A stretch of 64,000 bases of DNA from Candidatus Actinomarina sp. (lineage in GTDB: Bacteria; Actinomycetota; Acidimicrobiia; Actinomarinales; Actinomarinaceae), in the NCBI GenBank assembly GCA_038147085.1, contig JAYQSV010000001.1:608841-672840 (forward strand). The letters run 5' to 3'. Below the pieces are notes generated by a model that was not told the DNA's origin, made no database searches, and saw only the letters and a list, made by a program, of their open reading frames with translations. A program made the position numbers and the translations under genes. Positions 2,707-27,740 of this stretch are shown here, piece after piece; positions within the stretch are counted from its first letter, which is position 1; every line of letters starts with the position of its first letter.

Positions 2707-3901
2707 TAGAAAAATTGTGTCCCATTTTATCCTGTTTTGTTTCTAAATACTTTATATTATCTGGTGTCGTAGTTCCTATGAGCGGAGTTCTTTTTACAAT
2801 TTCTAAGCCATATCCTTCAAGGCCAGCTCTTTTAGATGGGTTATTAGTTAATAAATTCATTTTTTCAATACCAAGGCTCCTCAGAATTAGAGCTCCAGTT
2901 CCATAGTCTCTTTGGTCGTTTTTAAATCCTAATTTAATATTCGCATCAACTGTATCATCACCTTGATCTTGTAAAGAATATGCTTTTATTTTATTTCCAA
3001 GTCCTATGCCTCTGCCTTCATGACCACGCATGTAAAGTAATACACCACTATCATTTTCAACAATCATTTTTAACGCATTTTCTAATTGAGAACCACAATC
3101 ACATTTATTTGAAAATAGTGTGTCACCAGTTAAACATTCAGAATGAACACGTACCATAGTTTCATTACCATTCAGAAAATCACCATATGTTAATGCCATA
3201 TGTTCAGTGTTATCATTTGCGTCTTTAAAAACATGCCCCGTAAAATTTCCAAATTTTGTAGGTATATTTGCTTTTGAAATAAATTCAACTGGATTTGAGT
3301 TATTTAACTTGTAATGTATCAAGTCTTTTATCGTTCCAATTTTTAAATTATGGTTGTTTGCAAATTTAATTAAATCATCCAATCTTGCCATGGTTCCATC
3401 TTCATTTATAATTTCACAAATTACTGCAACAGGTTCATGATTAGAGAGGTAACATAACTCTACTGCTGCTTCTGTATGGCCAGCTCTTCTTAAAACTCCT
3501 CCATCCATAGCTTGCAGTGGAAAAATATGTCCCGGAACATTAAATGAATTTCTAGTTGATTCCTCATTTAGCAAACCTTTAATTGTCAAATACCTGTCTT
3601 TAGCTGATATCCCAGTGGTAACTTCAGAATCTTTTAGATCAACAGATGCTGTATATGGAGTTTGCAATTCGTTATTCACACCTTGCATTAAAGGTAATTT
3701 AAGCCTTTTTGCAATTTTAGAAGAAATTGGAGCACAAACTAAACCTTTACCATAAGTTATCATAAAATTGATATGTTCTGGAGTTAAATGGGTAGCTGAA
3801 ACAACTAGGTCTCCTTCATTTTCTCTTTCTTCATCATCAACTAAAATGATCATTTCACCATGACTAAATGATTTAATAATTGATTCAATTTCAGTTATCA
3901 T
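2699..3901 (-). CDS. ribBA: Bifunctional DHBP synthase / GTP cyclohydrolase II
   Basis: DDEERENEGD, RRAGHTEA, RVHSECLTGD, CDCG and EGRGIGL. Confidence 0.98.
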   Translation of the reverse strand: MITEIESIIKSFSHGEMIILVDDEERENEGDLVVSATHLTPEHINFMITYGKGLVCAPISSKIAKRLKLPLMQGVNNELQTPYTASVDLKDSEVTTGISAKDRYLTIKGLLNEESTRNSFNVPGHIFPLQAMDGGVLRRAGHTEAAVELCYLSNHEPVAVICEIINEDGTMARLDDLIKFANNHNLKIGTIKDLIHYKLNNSNPVEFISKANIPTKFGNFTGHVFKDANDNTEHMALTYGDFLNGNETMVRVHSECLTGDTLFSNKCDCGSQLENALKMIVENDSGVLLYMRGHEGRGIGLGNKIKAYSLQDQGDDTVDANIKLGFKNDQRDYGTGALILRSLGIEKMNLLTNNPSKRAGLEGYGLEIVKRTPLIGTTTPDNIKYLETKQDKMGHNFSNE

Positions 3902-12845: not shown

Positions 12846-13224
12846 TTTTTTTAATATAGCTTTCTAAAATTTCTAAAGCTGACAAATCATCATTTCTTTC
12901 TGTACTGTTATTGGAAATAATATTAGATGTAAACCTTTCGTCTATTTTTTCTATAGGGATATTAAAATTTAAGGAACTTATAAACTTATCTACTACAGCT
13001 GTCATTCTGTTTAACTGTGAGTTTAACCCGATAGGATAACCTATAACAATAAGGTTTATATTATAAAACTCAATAATTGCTTCTAGTTCAGAATTTAAAT
13101 TTGATTTTTTTTGATCAACTATTTTTAAAGGTGTACCAATGTTTGTGTTAGATTTTTTTAAAGCAAAACCAACATATCTTTCACCATAGTCAATTGATAA
13201 AATATTTTGATTATTTAATGTCAT
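12838..13224 (-). CDS. ruvX: YqgF/RuvX family nuclease
   Basis: SIDYGERYVGFA, VIGYP and DERFTS; alaS-ruvX-mltG gene order. Confidence 0.93.
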   Translation of the reverse strand: MTLNNQNILSIDYGERYVGFALKKSNTNIGTPLKIVDQKKSNLNSELEAIIEFYNINLIVIGYPIGLNSQLNRMTAVVDKFISSLNFNIPIEKIDERFTSNIISNNSTERNDDLSALEILESYIKKNE

Positions 13225-21392: not shown

Positions 21393-22302
21393 TTAATTAG
21401 TTTTAATTATTTTTGATAAAAATGGTACAGTTACAAAAATTGAACTATAAGTTCCTGATAATATACCTATCAATAAAGGAATAGCAAAATCAGATAAACT
21501 ACCATCAATCCCTAAATAATTACCTAGAAATAAGATTGAAATTATTGGAAAAGCTGATGTTAGAGAGGTATTTATACTTCTCATTAAAACTTCATTGAAT
21601 GTTTTATTTAATACTTCAGTAGTAAGTTGGTTTCTTTTGAATAACTTTTGAGAATCTTTAAGTTTGTCAAAAAGTATGACAGTATCATACAATGAGTAAC
21701 CAAGAATTGTTAACAAAGCAATTATTGTTGATGGAGTAATCTCAAGTCCCAGTAATTCATAAACTGTATAACTAAGAAATAGATCGTGGAATAAGGCTAT
21801 TAAAGCTATTACTGCATATTTAAATTCATATCTAAACGAAATCAAAATAACAATGATTGATAAAAATATAATTAATGCTCTTAATCCTTTTGAAGTAATT
21901 TCAGCTCCAAAAGTAGGACCTACTCTTTGAAATTCAATATCATCTTTTGAGACATCGAATTTATTGGAAAGATAAGTAAGTAACTCACTTTCTTTTTCTT
22001 GAGTTGATTCAATCTGCTCTAAATAATATAGAATTTGAGTTTTCAAATGTTTGATATCTAGAAACTTTAAGTATTGTATTATTTAAAACATCAGAAATAT
22101 CGTCTTGTGTATAGTTTGCTGATAATTGATAAGTTGTTCCACCAGTAAAATCTACTGATAAATTTAAATCTCGAAATCCTGAAATTGATAAACCAATCAC
22201 AGATACAAAAATAACAATTTCAATTAAAAATATTTTCATAAATCTTTTACCTAATTTATAAAAATCAATCTCAGTTGTTCCTAAAAATAATTTACTAAAC
22301 AT
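21393..22302 (-). CDS. secF: Protein translocase subunit SecF, split by one extra base (~22010)
   Basis: The N-terminal ORF has SVDFTGGT; the C-terminal ORF has VGPTFG, GYSLYDT and GTYSSIF. Confidence 0.93.
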
Positions 22303-23741
22303 TAGTTAAAGCTTCTTTCTTAATAGGAAAAAATGATCTTGAATTATTTGATATTCTTGTAAACAAAGGAACAGCATTTTTAGTAAAGATTCTAGTAAAT
22401 ATTAAATCAAAAACTGTAGCTATACCAAGTGTTAAGGCAAAACCTCGGATTGGTCCAATAGCTAAAATATATAAAATTACAGAAGCAGTAAGGGAAACAA
22501 AATCAGCTGTTAAAATTGTTTTCCAAGCTTCTGTTACGGCTTTTTCAGAAGCATATTGAAAAGATCTACCAATTTTAAGCTCATCTTTAAATTTTTCAAA
22601 TGTGACGATATATGAATCTGCTGCTAATCCAATTGATACAATTACACCAGCAATTCCAGCAAGAGTTAGAGTAAAACCTTGATATTTTCCCAATAGAGAA
22701 ATTGCTGAATAAAATAGCATTCCAAAAGAAGACAATCCAAGAATTGCAATTAATCCATTTAATCTGTAATAAAGTATTAAAAATAAACTTACAATTATAA
22801 GTCCAACTAAACCAGCTTCAAGACCAAGTTTTAATGTATTTTCACCTAATGAAGCAGATACTTTTTGTATAGAGGAACGTTCAAAAGAAACTGGTAAAGC
22901 TCCGTATCTAAGAACAACTGCTAAATTATTTGCTGATTGACCTTGATCAGCATTACCCATAGAAATAGCTGCTGTACCTCCGGTTATTCCAACATTAGGA
23001 TTGACATCTAAAGCAATACCTGGAGCTGAGATAACTTGACTGTCAAGAACTATAGCAAGTTTTCTTTGTTCTCCTGTCAAACTTGCTAATTGTTTAGTTA
23101 ATTCAGTAAATTTATCTGCAGATTCATCTTTAAAAACTAGTTGTACAATCCATTCATTTTGAGGATATACAGCTAAAGCATCACTAATATCATTACCTGT
23201 TAAAACAGCTGGACCTAGTTCGTAAATCACTGGATAGCCACCAGAAAGAGATAATAAATATGAAATTTTATTAGGATCATCATTTATAGTCAGGCCAGTT
23301 AAATTATCTACACCTTCCGGTGCATTTATTGTTGGGTTTTCAGGATCATCAGGATTTTCAATTATTTCTAATGCTGGTGAATAACCAATACTTAATGAAG
23401 AGTCAAGCACTGGTCTAAAAGTTAATAGTCCAGTTGTTCCAACTGCTTCAATTGCTTTTTCTTGATCTGTGATGCCTGGCAATTGTACTAATACAGAATT
23501 TTCTCCACTGATGGATATCTCTGGTTCTTGAACATCTCCAAATGCAGCAATTCTAGATCGCATAATATGTGACAGCTTGTTCTATTAATTCTGAATCGGT
23601 ACCTTCCTCAGCAGTAAGAATTAAAGAGATTCCACCTTGTAAGTCCAATCCTAATTTGGGAGTTATATCATTAAAATAAACATAAATAAACAAGGAGATT
23701 GATAAAACAGGTAATAGTAGAAACTTTAGAATATTTTTCAT
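22295..23741 (-). CDS. secD: Protein translocase subunit SecD, split by one extra base (~23567)
   Basis: The N-terminal ORF has KLGLDLQGG; the C-terminal ORF has VQLPG, LAIVLD, LRYGALP and GPIRGFA. Confidence 0.93.
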
Positions 23742-23744
23742 GAA

Positions 23745-23993
23745 TTACTTAAATGAGATATTGTTCTTTAAGATCTCAATTTCTCCCTTTTTTACAACAA
23801 GAGTAACTCTATCATCTTTAATATTTACGACACGCCCAAAAATCCCAGAATCAGTTAAAACATCATCACCTATTTTTAGTGAACTAACATAATTCTTATG
23901 TTTTTTTTGTCTTCTTCTTTGAGGAATATAAAGAATTATATAAAAAATAATAAATACAAGTATTAAAGGTAATAGTGCTATCAATTCGTTCAT
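23745..23993 (-). CDS. yajC: Preprotein translocase subunit YajC
   Basis: TM followed by PQRRRQKK...GDDVLT.SGIFG; upstream of secD. Confidence 0.95.
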   Translation of the reverse strand: MNELIALLPLILVFIIFYIILYIPQRRRQKKHKNYVSSLKIGDDVLTDSGIFGRVVNIKDDRVTLVVKKGEIEILKNNISFK

Positions 23994-25072
23994 ATTTTTA
24001 AACTTTCTTTATACTTTTCAAAATTTGAGTTTAATATACTTTCTTGTATTTCCTTAAGTATATTTTCTGTTTGGACTATGTTATGTAATGTTAAGTAAAA
24101 CCAAGATGAAGTACTTTCATTAATTAATAAATGTCTTAAATAAGATCTCGAATAGTTTTTACATGTAAAACATGTACAGTTTTGGTCAAGAGGTTTAGAA
24201 TCTGCTGAATATTTTGAATTTTTTAAATTGAAAAATTGTCCTTTAGTTATTATTTTGCCGTGTCTAGCCAATCTAGCAGGCCATACGCAATCAAACATAT
24301 CTATACCAAGCTCTATAAGCTCAATCATCCCCTTAATGTCTCCCAATCCCATTACATAACGTAACTTATCTCCTGGTAGAAATGGAACAGTGTGTTTTAC
24401 AATTTCTATTCTTTGTTCACTTGTTTCACCAATTGCCAAACCTCCAATTGCATAACCATCAAATTCTAAAGAAAGCATCTGTTTTGCTGAGATTTCACGT
24501 AGATCTTTATTTAACCCCCCTTGAACAATACCAAATAAAGATTGAGTTTTATTGTTGTGAATTTCTCTTGCTTCAGTAGCCCATCTAAATGTTACATCTA
24601 TAGCTTTTTTTTGATCTTCGTAAGAAGAATCTACATTTATTAAATTATCTAATATCATGGCAATATCACTGTTTAAAGTACTTTGTATTTCCATAGATAA
24701 CTTAGGAGTCATCTTAAAACTTGAACCATCGTAAATATTTTTAAATTGAATACCATCGTCATGAAGTTTATTTGGTATTGACCAACCTTGGAAACCACCT
24801 GAGTCTGTCAGAATTAAATTATCCCAGTTTATAAATGAATGTAATCCATTAAATTTGGTTATAACATCCAATCCAGGTCTCAAAAATAAGTGATATGTAT
24901 TTCCAAGAATTATTGGTGAGTTATTTAAATAATTGAGAGGTAATGATTTAATTGACCCCCTTGTAGCAACTGGCATAAATATTGGCGTTGTAAATTCTTT
25001 TCCATTTATATTAACTTTATTTACCCTTGCTAATTTATCTTCAGCAATAGTTTCTATTGTGTAATTATTCAT
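23990..25072 (-). CDS. tgt: tRNA-guanine transglycosylase
   Basis: TPIFMPVAT, NTYHL, LTDSGGFQ, GIVQGG, DMFDC and CTCFTC. Confidence 0.97.
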   Translation of the reverse strand: MNNYTIETIAEDKLARVNKVNINGKEFTTPIFMPVATRGSIKSLPLNYLNNSPIILGNTYHLFLRPGLDVITKFNGLHSFINWDNLILTDSGGFQGWSIPNKLHDDGIQFKNIYDGSSFKMTPKLSMEIQSTLNSDIAMILDNLINVDSSYEDQKKAIDVTFRWATEAREIHNNKTQSLFGIVQGGLNKDLREISAKQMLSLEFDGYAIGGLAIGETSEQRIEIVKHTVPFLPGDKLRYVMGLGDIKGMIELIELGIDMFDCVWPARLARHGKIITKGQFFNLKNSKYSADSKPLDQNCTCFTCKNYSRSYLRHLLINESTSSWFYLTLHNIVQTENILKEIQESILNSNFEKYKESLKI

Positions 25073-26062
25073 TTATATCAAATAATACAGCGTCACCAAA
25101 ACTTAAAAATTTCATTTTTTTATTTAATGCAAAGTCATACAGTTCTCTCCATTTATCTCCATAAATATTGTGAACTATTGACAACAAACTACTCTTTGGT
25201 GCATGAAAATTTGTTATTAGTTGATTTGCTAAATTCAATTTAGTATTTGGAAGTATAAATAAATCTGTCTCTCCTTCTAGTTGATTATTAATAAATGCAG
25301 ATTCAATTGCTCTTAATGATGTCGTTCCTATACATAAAATATTTTTATTTAATTTTTTATATTTTAAAATTTTTAAAAAGTCATTTTCTGATATGCTATA
25401 TTTTTCTGAATGAATTTTATGATCTTCTATATATTTTGTTGTTATAGGTTTAAAAGTACCAAGGTTTACATCAAGATTTATAAAAATTATCTCATGACCA
25501 CTTTTTTTTAGTTTTTCAATTTTAGAATTTGAAAAGTGTAAACCAGCTGTTGGTGATGCAACAGAAAATCCTTTATTTGAAAATTGATTGTTATAGTATT
25601 TATATTTATGACTTTCATCTTTTATGTAAGGAGGAAGTGGTACTTTTCCATAATGTTCAATCAGATTTAAAATACTTTCTGAAAATTTTACTTCAAAAAA
25701 TTCAGGATACACATTTATAATTTCAGCATTAAAGCTATTAAAAATGTATTTTTTGCCAATTGTTTTTTTGTCAGTTGATTTAATTAAACATTTTGCATTG
25801 TATTTGCTTAAAATTTCTAATATAAAAAACTCAATTTTTCCACCAGTAGATTTTTCATCAATTATTCTTACTTTTTGTACCTTAGATTTATTAAAAATTA
25901 GTAGAGAATTCGGCGGAATGAAATTTTCAATTTTACTAAAAGGAACAATAGTTTTATCTGAAGCTATTAAGAAGTTTAGATTTTTCAGGTTTCAGAATAA
26001 GGTTCTTGATTTATTGAGATTTCAGGGAGGTAATAATTATAAAATTCTGTTTCATTTTGCAT
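25065..26062 (-). CDS. queA: SAM:tRNA ribosyltransferase-isomerase QueA, with two extra bases near the 5' end
   Basis: The C-terminal ORF has PLPPYI, SVASPTAGLHF, GTTSLRA and FLSFGD. Manual translation extends upstream to IFNKSKV and MQNETEFYNYYLPE, with shifts near 25990 and 25965. Confidence 0.92.
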
Positions 26063-26412
26063 TATTTATTAACTTTATAAATAATTCATAAGACATTGAA
26101 ACTATTTCAGGGATACCATCAGAAGACCTTCTAGTTTTTCCTTCTGTTTTTTTTAATTTTTTCCAAAAAAGTATTGTATTTTTTGAACCTGATTTATTTA
26201 TAGCTTTATCTAAAGATTGATGTGCATTTAAATTTTGTCTAGATTTTGCTTCTATAAAGTATTCTTCATCACCTACAAATAATTGAATATCGCCTAAATC
26301 GTTTGAACCACCTTCTGCAAATCTTTGTGCTTTAAAGTTTTCATTTTCATTTAAATCGTTTAACAATATTTGTTTCATAAGTAGTACCTTGCTTTTTAGC
26401 TTTATTTACCAT
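26052..26412 (-). CDS. Hjc/phage-type PD-(D/E)xK Holliday junction resolvase-like protein (one extra T ~26351)
   Basis: The reconstructed sequence MVNKAKKQGTTYETNIVKRLNENENFKAQRFAEGGSNDLGDIQLFVGDEEYFIEAK has the K-x-G-x3-E, R, D and ExK pattern of the Hjc family. It occupies the ruvCAB position. Confidence 0.72.
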
Positions 26413-26430
26413 AAATAAATTTTACTTTTA

Positions 26431-27175
26431 TTACTCAGAAAGTAACGTTTCTAAATCTTTTTCTTGAATATCAAAATTTGTATATACATCTTGAACATCA
26501 TCTAAATCTTCTAATGCATCTATAAGTTTAGATATTTTTAAAAATTGATCTATCGACAAATTTATTGATGTTGATGGAACATAAGCTATTTCTGAACTAG
26601 ATGGTAAAAAATTATTTTGTAAAAAAGCTTCATTAGCTTTTTTGAAATTTGAAGCAGAAAACTCAAAAGTAATTGATGAAGATTGTTCTATTATATCTTC
26701 TGCATCATTCAAGATAGCTATATTGATTAGTTCTTCACTTGTTTGTTCAAATTGAAATACTGCTTTTCTTTCAAATAAATAACTAACGCTACCTGGAGTA
26801 CCCATTGATCCTCCATGTTTTGATAGTGTTGCTTTTACATCAGAAGAAGCTCTATTTTTATTGTCTGTTAGACAGTTTATTAATATTGCAACACCGTATA
26901 AACCATAACCTTCGTAACTTAACTCAAATAGTTCGTCACTATCTAAATCACCATCTATTCGTTTTAAAGCTCTTTCGATATTTTCATTTGGTACTGAATT
27001 TGATTTTGCTTTAGAAATTGCTTGATATAAAGGAGCATTACTTGACGGATCAGTACCTCCGTTTCTAGCAGCTATTTCAATAGCTTTTACTAAGTTTGGC
27101 AAATAACTTACCTCTTTTAGCATCGTTAGCACCTTTTTTTCTTTTTATAGTTGACCATTTAGAATGTCCCGACAT
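26431..27175 (-). CDS. yebC: YebC/PmpR family protein (one extra base ~27090)
   Basis: Manual translation gives the N-terminus [22 protein letters not shown]; the ORF has YEGYG, TDNKNR and DDVQDVYTN. Confidence 0.95.
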
Positions 27176-27740
27176 ATTCACCACTTTTCAAATATTGCTT
27201 AAGCCATTCAATATAAAATGTATCATTTGTGAGTTCTGGATGATAAGTTAATCCAACTACATTTTGTTGTTGTACTCCAACAACTTCATCATTATGGAAT
27301 GCAATTTGTTTAACGTTGTCAGATAAAATATTTAAAATTTTAGGTGCTCTTATAAAACAATAAATATCTGAGTTATTTAAAAATTTTACATCTCCTTCAA
27401 ATGATTGATTTTGCCTTCCGTAAGCGTTTCTTTGAATCTGGATATCTAAATTTGGAATACAAGTTTCTCCGTCGATTACATCTTTAGAAAGTAAAATAGT
27501 TCCGGCGCAAGTGGTTAAAGTTGGTACACCCTTTTTTATAACTTTATCAACTTCATTAAATAAGTTTTGTTCACGTTGTATAACTTTCATTGATGTAGAT
27601 TCACCACCTGGAATAATAAGAGAATCTATATCTTCTAAATCTTCAATTCTTTTTATAAGAACATAATTAAAATTACAAATCTCTAAAGATTTACAATGAT
27701 TTAAAAAACTACCTTGTAGAGCTAAAACTCCAACTTTCAA
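27159..27740 (-). CDS. pdxT: PLP synthase glutaminase subunit
   Basis: GVLALQG, IPGGEST, TCAG, RNAYGRQ and HPEL; TTG start. Confidence 0.96.

Follow-up and report, generated by a model that had tools for sequence, protein, structure and literature searches.

The locus described here raises the question of which enzyme cuts recombination junctions in a bacterium whose genome shows no trace of ruvC, ruvA or ruvB, and why one small gene stands at the place where these three are normally found. Here, we analysed a stretch of 64,000 nucleotides of Candidatus Actinomarina sp. DNA (GCA_038147085.1, contig JAYQSV010000001.1, positions 608,841 to 672,840 of the forward strand), referred to below as the window, which lies within a single-contig genome of 1,012,864 bases (1.01 Mb) with 28.9% G+C. 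The subject is a gene located between yebC and queA, called gene X, whose product is called X. We consider it likely that X is a phage-derived, small PD-(D/E)xK nuclease of the Hjc type that now serves Actinomarinales, an order of free-living and very abundant marine bacteria, as their Holliday junction resolvase. With somewhat less confidence, we favour the view that the order has discarded RuvABC (about 2.3 kb) and that RecG, together with this one 0.36-kb phage-captured resolvase in the vacated ruvCAB slot, does all of the junction processing. The gene was placed on the basis of reading frames, intact orthologues, motifs, profile and fold:

26052..26412, minus strand: gene X, putative Hjc/phage-type PD-(D/E)xK nuclease, 119 codons.

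Gene X is the only gene between the yebC stop codon (26433-26431) and queA, whose ATG (26062-26060) overlaps the final 11 bases of gene X. In the deposited sequence its frame is broken. The ATG at 26412-26410 on the minus strand opens a frame that reads MVNKAKKQGTTYETNIVKRFK and then stops, leaving a 21-codon head and a 108-amino-acid open reading frame (ORF, 26378-26052) in the next frame. Skipping one T, so that CGAT is read as R, gives a protein of 119 amino acids (P0001) that reads ...NIVKRLNENENFKAQRFAEGG..., and intact orthologues read NIVKRLNEHSQFKAQRF or NIVNRLNKN... across the position of the break. An earlier note, made from the sequence of this stretch, had claimed a single gene of about 119 amino acids between yebC and queA, with an N-terminus hidden from the ORF track by one extra T. 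Frame reading bears out the first part, read-through and DNA alignment the second, and the protein reconstructed in that note is identical to P0001.

The next point concerns the absence of RuvABC. Searches for RuvC (PF02075), the C-terminal domain of RuvB (RuvB_C, PF05491) and the N-terminal domain of RuvA (RuvA_N, PF01330) gave no match in the 1.01-Mb genome, and each of the three profiles was found in 0 of the 65 genomes of the order, while control searches for the Ruv profiles behaved as expected. Four weak RuvB_N matches in the genome are DnaX, ClpX, FtsH and DnaA. The distribution across the class is complementary: among 100 genomes that are at least 90% complete, RuvC was present in all 88 outside the family and in none of the 12 inside, and the X profile matched all 12 inside, with only three weak matches (E values of 3e-12, 1e-6 and 3e-3) among the 88 outside. 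A draw of 300 other genomes of the phylum yielded only two weak X matches at E≤1e-5, one of them in a genome flagged as unpublished; at most 14 candidates per genome were scored in this draw, and weak matches may be undercounted.

The place of gene X was compared with the ruvC locus of three other Acidimicrobiia, read with Pfam. These carry a glycosyltransferase, LemA, an M48 peptidase, DUF3048, pdxS and pdxT upstream of yebC, and continue with yebC, one small gene, ruvC, ruvA, ruvB, yajC, secD, secF and relA (in locus L037 the Pfam scan covered all but the stretch from ruvB to secD). The order in the window is glycosyltransferase, pdxS, pdxT, yebC, X, queA, tgt, yajC, secD and secF. ruvCAB is found at the matching position in all three relatives, so that, judging by gene order, about 2.3 kb of ruvCAB appears to have been replaced at the same place by X-queA-tgt. 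This supports the displacement of RuvABC in situ that had been postulated, as does the absence of Ruv profiles throughout the order. The gene order that the earlier note had called usual stood in part: pdxT-yebC, one further gene, ruvC-ruvA-ruvB and then yajC-secD-secF are indeed found, but queA and tgt do not follow ruvB in the three relatives. The small gene between yebC and ruvC encodes 226 amino acids with no Pfam match at E≤1e-5 in two of them (L033:6236-6913 and L037:7491-8168) and an AhpC/TSA peroxiredoxin in the third (L034:6373-6843).

We also assessed what remains of the recombination machinery. Both RecG (664.7 bits, over the cut-off) and RecA (464 bits) are encoded in the genome, and the search for recG was extended to the order, where 59 of 65 genomes match the RecG model at E≤1e-100 (12/12 of the high-quality ones). 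RecG proper is found in 58 of them; in the remaining genome (G058) the only match to the model is a second helicase of about 1050 amino acids. A second RecG-like superfamily-2 helicase of this kind is also present in the genome studied here, outside the window (G000:C1:957773-958948, a frame of about 1051 amino acids, 342.6 bits, below the recG cut-off); it is kept in many genomes of the order and looks Mfd-like by its length. Profile searches of the genome found no RadA/Sms, RecU or RusA. RecQ was not found either, and the only match to the topB model scores 154.8 bits against a cut-off of 515.75 (914-amino-acid frame); dissolution of junctions by RecQ and topoisomerase III was rejected on these grounds. 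RuvX/YqgF (76.9 bits) is the one further candidate for a junction nuclease that was found in the genome.

The identity of X was approached from its motifs, its sequence relatives and its predicted fold. The layout G-x3-E, R, D and ExK, pointed out previously, is present in X (G9-x3-E13, R30, D41, E54-A-K56), and its conservation was read from an alignment of 72 full-length family members. In this alignment T10 and D41 are invariant, and conservation reaches at least 90% at K6, G9, E13, R30, E33, G35, D38, G40, E54, K73, W83, K84, R95 and G99; at position 56 the consensus is K (IEAK), yet this residue falls outside the list of those at or above 90%. An exhaustive profile search of 1.84 billion representatives returned 245 clusters at E≤0.001, with 123 of them at E≤1e-10. 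When the family profile was compared with all PDB sequences, the seven best matches were Hjc (1hh1/4tkk with E=7e-4; 2eo0, 7bgs and 2wcz), and the match to 1hh1 aligns E13, R30, D41, E54 and K56 onto the catalytic residues of Hjc. Over its full length, X matches the phage family phrog_244 with E=5.3e-11 (residues 1-118 on profile positions 4-113 of 186), and 70 of the 72 family members match this profile too; PHROGs have no curated cut-off. Some family entries at JGI already bear the automatic name "Holliday junction resolvase".

The AlphaFold model of X is of high predicted quality, with a predicted local distance difference test value (pLDDT) of 92.2 and a predicted template modelling score (pTM) of 0.84, and has the order alpha-beta-beta-beta-alpha-beta-beta-alpha. 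All ten top matches of this model in a Foldseek search of the PDB are Hjc (E values from 7e-5 to 1e-3). VIA-align, which is independent of Foldseek, was run against 48,161 chains and placed first Hjc 1gef with Z 8.6 (root-mean-square deviation (rmsd) 3.3 over 95 aligned residues), 2wcw with Z 7.9 and Hje 1ob8 with Z 7.6; the Thermus phage Hjc 7bgs has a Z of 7.0 and RecU 1y1o one of 5.3. Models of phage proteins, several of them named Holliday junction resolvase, reach template modelling (TM) scores of 0.6-0.72 to X. The earlier proposal of an Hjc/phage-type PD-(D/E)xK protein, as opposed to an RNase H-fold RuvC, is thus favoured by both profile and fold, each of which matches Hjc best, with the reservation that curated cut-offs are missed.

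Other named resolvases were considered and rejected. RuvC is excluded by the lack of PF02075 among the Pfam matches of X at E≤10 and by a fold that is PD-(D/E)xK and not RNase H. RusA (PF05866) gives no match to X at E≤10 and none in the genome, RecU (PF03838) matches neither X nor the genome, with a Z of only 5.3 for 1y1o, and YraN/UPF0102 is absent both from the Pfam matches of X at E≤10 and from the six families matched by the 72 members.

Several observations weigh against the reading of X as a junction resolvase that has taken the place of RuvABC. All curated family cut-offs are missed: X scores 12.8 bits with Pfam Hjc PF01870 (cut-off 21.1), 19 bits with PDDEXK_15 PF24608 (cut-off 27; profile positions 1-73 of 164) and 14.2 bits with NCBIfam Hjc NF040854 (cut-off 70), and NCBIfam contributed no more than this sub-threshold match. 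At E≤0.01, PF01870 is matched by 2 and PF24608 by 14 of the 72 family members. The sequence similarity to Hjc is limited to about 62 N-terminal positions, the Foldseek TM score to Hjc is about 0.45 with an rmsd of 7-9 Å, and a Z of 8.6 is near the level that is common with VIA-align for unrelated best matches. Other PD-(D/E)xK enzymes follow within 1.5 Z units of Hjc, and this fold serves many nucleases. By marker count, completeness is 60-94% for most genomes of the order, and the genome studied here ends without overlap; since the genomes are incomplete and this one is not proven closed, the absence of RuvABC rests on the consistent 0/65. RuvX is present and could contribute to junction processing. 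Finally, the phylogenetic tree described below is unrooted and gives no donor, no root and no attachment point for the cellular clade.

Some of these points lend weight to the explanation that X is a conserved PD-(D/E)xK nuclease with another job, acting on flaps, on mismatches, in a restriction-like manner or on RNA or tRNA, with junctions being handled by RuvX/YqgF or by RecG-driven reversal. Besides the missed cut-offs and the presence of RuvX, restriction, homing and tRNA-splicing endonucleases come close behind Hjc with Z values of 5-7, the overlap of the X stop with the queA start hints at a role connected with RNA or tRNA, and passages of PMC10140301 describe a bacterial Hjc/UPF0102 homologue that binds DNA and shows no nuclease activity in vitro. 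However, Hjc comes out best by three independent routes (PDB profile, Foldseek and VIA-align), and the closest full-length relatives are phage proteins that lie beside replication genes and are named junction resolvases. X lies in the ruvCAB slot, and across the 100 genomes of the class its presence is complementary to that of RuvC. Linkage to queA is itself known from ruv genes and typical of them, QueA ranking fourth among the STRING partners of RuvB (passages of PMC3403352). Neither RecQ nor topoisomerase III was found that could dissolve junctions instead. RuvX occurs in 10 of 14 RuvC-bearing control genomes as well, and for this reason its presence does not explain the loss of Ruv. We therefore regard a different job for X as unlikely, although of all alternatives it survives best. 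For X as a resolvase, the presence of a conserved gene of Hjc type in the ruvCAB slot of genomes devoid of RuvABC suggests that it probably cuts recombination junctions.

The broken frame of gene X is a separate matter, and we read it as an assembly error and not as biology. The base in question and its surroundings are as follows:

26353..26355: the extra base, within AAA on the plus strand and TTT on the gene strand; relatives have TT, and metagenome contigs omit one base at 26353.

In a DNA alignment with three orthologues the window reads CGA-TTT-AAATG where the relatives read AGA-TT-AAATG, that is, with one T more. Over 25700-27200 we aligned contigs of four public runs, each from a different study; every contig that covers the site omits one base at 26353, and in 4/4 runs the depth with this deletion equals the total depth. 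Single bases are missing from these contigs at 25967 and 25990/25991 (both in queA) and at 27091-27094 (yebC) as well. Moreover, yebC (about 251 amino acids), X (117-119) and queA (about 330) are whole in 11/11 of the relatives' loci read. Two further genes on the minus strand are split within 21393-23741, namely secD (a 62-amino-acid ORF at 23553-23741 and a 422-amino-acid ORF at 22295-23563) and secF (ORFs of 97 and 217 amino acids); these two splits probably arose through indel errors as well.

If the extra T were genuine, gene X would be a real pseudogene in this strain and the cell would live without its resolvase, which we find very improbable. The deposited assembly does have the extra base, and the database carries a truncated product of 108 amino acids (P0113), which comes from the contig of 1,012,864 bases. 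Contigs of other samples are silent on the source reads (the share of common words is at most 0.63 in any run), and since they cannot prove what those reads contain, a strain-private pseudogene retains a small probability. Against it stand the independent metagenome contigs, every one of which that covers the site is without the extra base and without those of queA and yebC, and the indels of the core genes, secD and secF included, which fit a consensus error. In addition, the cluster of the 97%-identical protein (P0022) has 43 members, and among the members listed 14/15 are intact at 119 amino acids. One partial member of this cluster (P0315, 110 amino acids, on a 1.6-kb contig) is labelled by NCBI as coming from a metagenome-assembled genome of Pelagibacteraceae; this label is probably a binning error, and the gene not one of SAR11.

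As an assembly error in this one genome, the break leaves the conservation of gene X across the order to be described. With P0001 as query, one uninterrupted match of 117-119 amino acids was found in 22 of the 24 other genomes of the genus, and none in the 16 genomes from other families of the class. An orthologue profile matched 56/65 Actinomarinales genomes, including 12/12 of those at least 90% complete, so that the gene is near-universal in the order and not sporadic. The frame is uninterrupted in 53 of the 56 matching genomes, the exceptions being the genome studied here, G003 (partial) and G053 (split); a full-length frame kept this often is far beyond chance. The position between yebC and queA is fixed in all 11 loci read, in agreement with the synteny proposed for it. 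The ratio of non-synonymous to synonymous substitution rates (dN/dS) was estimated for 17 orthologues representing 16 distinct DNA sequences, with identical pairs dropped; its median is 0.084 for 130 usable pairs of 135 and 0.032 for the 32 pairs with dS<1. Gene X is under strong purifying selection. Every outcome that the earlier note had named as refuting its interpretation was checked and turned out in its favour: no ruvABC signature elsewhere, a gene that is not sporadic, a PD-(D/E)xK match in fold and profile, and a frameshift missing from independent contigs.

Relatives of X were found in viruses as well. In three of the four groups tried, family representatives with 45-49% identity to X have copies on viral contigs of IMG/VR. 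P0138 is 82% identical to genes on two such contigs, and on the one that was scanned (L047) a replication initiation protein adjoins. P0131 (49% identical to X) has a 48% relative on contig L049 beside a primase/helicase, and P0140 a 60% relative on a contig of 47.7 kb; P0133, the closest representative from outside Actinomarinales, has no IMG/VR relative. Contig L049 is a marine phage replication module of 38% G+C, which also carries a sigma-factor-like gene as well as a small one with matches to PHROGs under the label "phosphofructokinase" (1905-2375 and 3022-3291). A tblastn search of X against 50,697 phage records gave one weak match, in Microbacterium phage Caron (40% over 63 amino acids), annotated as a Holliday junction resolvase. 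The genomes of cultured phages hardly sample the X family. In the ESM Atlas clusters nearest to X, 80-100% of the members that have a taxonomic record are viral, which is to be taken as a lead only. That gene X might be selfish, or a phage remnant that does nothing for the host, as such viral contigs and Atlas clusters could suggest, can be dismissed with near certainty given its fixed position between yebC and queA in 11/11 loci, its presence in 12/12 high-quality genomes, its dN/dS of 0.084, its single clade with short internal branches, the lack of any phage genes adjoining it in the window and the fact that dead weight carried by a whole order is unlikely in a streamlined 1-Mb genome.

A maximum-likelihood tree was built quickly from 75 rows and 127 columns, and 39 of its 72 inner branches are open. 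It places the six Actinomarinales rows in one clade (SH-aLRT support, from a Shimodaira-Hasegawa-like approximate likelihood-ratio test, of 100) with a long stem of 0.79 and short internal branches, whereas end branches elsewhere have a median of 0.79. The tree with phage homologues that had been suggested thus unites the cellular sequences, but leaves their attachment open. A viral origin of X is well supported, and since the gene is near-absent from other chromosomes of Actinomycetota and has viral relatives, capture by the cell from a phage would be the simplest history. The idea of a domesticated virus-type resolvase accordingly holds as regards the viral relatives, the match to PHROG 244 and the fixation in a core operon, while the direction of transfer is not rooted. 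Within the phage Hjc-like nucleases, X is a new branch of cellular type.

It is instructive to set X beside the systems already known. With archaeal Hjc and Hje (PF01870, NF040854; 1gef, 1hh1, 2wcw, 1ob8) it shares a size of about 120-140 amino acids, and these proteins are its top matches in both sequence profile and structure. The residues reported as essential in P. furiosus Hjc are E9, R10, R25, D33, E46, K48 and K81 (passages of PMC10956419 and PMC10140301); E13, R30, D41, E54 and K56 of X correspond to E9, R25, D33, E46 and K48, with nearly equal spacing. The differences are that the host of X is bacterial and X is below both curated cut-offs, that X has GD in place of PD before the second strand and T14 in place of R10, and that its C-terminal half, with the conserved W83-K84, R95 and G99, is not alignable by sequence, the TM score being only about 0.45. 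The phage Hjc-like proteins (PHROG 244, PF24608, Hjc_15-6 of Thermus phage Tth15-6 with structure 7bgs, and gp47 of Caron) are closer in that the match to PHROG 244 is full-length and the TM scores to phage models are 0.6-0.72, with a Z of 7.0 for 7bgs. Hjc_15-6, which has the motif E10-SD40-EVK55, cleaves junctions according to passages of PMC8805305. X differs from this group, as it is chromosomal, fixed in a core operon, under purifying selection and part of one cellular clade with a long stem, and it misses the PF24608 cut-off (19 against 27 bits). The label "RusA-like" given to PHROG 244 is a misnomer, X having no match to Pfam RusA.

Two bacterial systems provide a functional parallel. 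RecU is a resolvase with the PD-(D/E)xK fold that replaced RuvC across a bacterial lineage (passages of PMC3403352). RecU of Firmicutes/Mollicutes (PF03838) resembles X in being a PD-(D/E)xK resolvase in RuvC's stead (Z of 5.3 for 1y1o); however, lineages with RecU keep RuvAB, whereas RuvA and RuvB are gone in Actinomarinales, and X is smaller and gives no RecU match. The second is RusA of E. coli, which suppresses ruv mutants when RecG is present (passages of PMC10956419 and PMC3403352), so that a small prophage-derived resolvase and RecG make RuvABC dispensable. Archaeal Hjc, too, restores repair in E. coli without RuvC (passages of PMC10956419). By analogy, the gene set of Actinomarinales, with a phage-type resolvase, RecG and no RuvABC, can be regarded as the natural counterpart of the RusA/RecG suppression. 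The fold and family are different, and a laboratory suppressor in E. coli contrasts with the fixed wild-type state of the order.

The scheme that we propose for RecG and X mirrors this suppression and the rescue of RuvC loss by Hjc. RecA would make the joint molecule, and RecG, as the only junction motor left, would move the branch point. A dimer of X would then bind the four-way junction and introduce two paired nicks, with E13, D41, E54 and K56 forming the metal site and R30 and the basic N-terminus lying on the DNA, after which a ligase would seal the products. In this scheme we infer the junction specificity, the formation of a dimer and the partnership with RecG, as well as the direction of transfer from phage to cell.

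The remaining features of the neighbourhood concern how gene X is expressed and what surrounds it:

26413..26430, minus strand: 18-nucleotide spacer from the yebC stop to the X start, with TAAAAT at 26424-26419, N6 before the ATG.
26431..27187 (start approximate), minus strand: yebC (TACO1/YebC family), which lies upstream in ruvC-bearing relatives too; intact at 251 amino acids in relatives and assigned by Pfam there, with an extra base near 27091-27094 that breaks its 5' part here.
25065..26062, minus strand: queA, an intact frame of about 330 amino acids in relatives, with two extra bases here (25967 and 25990/25991).
23990..25072, minus strand: tgt, after queA; 360-amino-acid ORF, named from its conserved neighbour and from sequence reading.
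23745..23993, minus strand: yajC, the downstream border of the slot; 82-amino-acid ORF, with YajC following ruvB in relatives.
About 12850..13206 (G000:C1:621690-622046), minus strand: RuvX/YqgF homologue (PF03652, 76.9 bits).

A promoter of its own, in the form TAAAAT-N6-ATG, had been ascribed to gene X. The element is present, and a TAnnnT hexamer spaced N6 from the ATG is seen again in 10 of 11 loci examined in relatives, the spacing being N8 in the remaining one, L014; the genomes are related and not independent. However, the element is only a -10-like hexamer: a consensus scan found no full sigma-70-type promoter ahead of X and no terminator-like site, and with 7 sites the region has fewer than shuffled sequence does (11.3). 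No Shine-Dalgarno-like purine run is present in the 18 nucleotides between yebC and X. A leaderless start is one possible reading of the spacer, simple co-transcription of X with yebC the other.

As regards the literature, full-text searches that paired Actinomarinales with ruvC and Actinomarina with Holliday junction turned up no paper, supplements aside, and the terms ruv, resolvase, Holliday, recA and DNA repair are absent from the passages searched of the order's genome paper (PMC7771536). Passages of the same paper describe a strong dependence of Actinomarinales on homologous recombination for the cohesion of their populations. Fewer than 2% of sequenced bacteria are reported to lack RuvAB, and most of these are parasites whose genomes are reduced (passages of PMC3403352). 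If our reading of gene X is true, this would be the first lineage-wide replacement in bacteria of the entire RuvABC, and not of RuvC alone, by an enzyme of the Hjc type, and the order would have, naturally and in fixed form, what the rus suppressor provides in E. coli. It would define a minimal and testable kit that consists of RecA, RecG and a nuclease of 119 amino acids, and would clearly illustrate how, in the course of genome reduction, a phage gene can be domesticated into a core operon. RuvAB would then be dispensable outside parasites as well, and phage genes could serve the streamlining of bacterial genomes.

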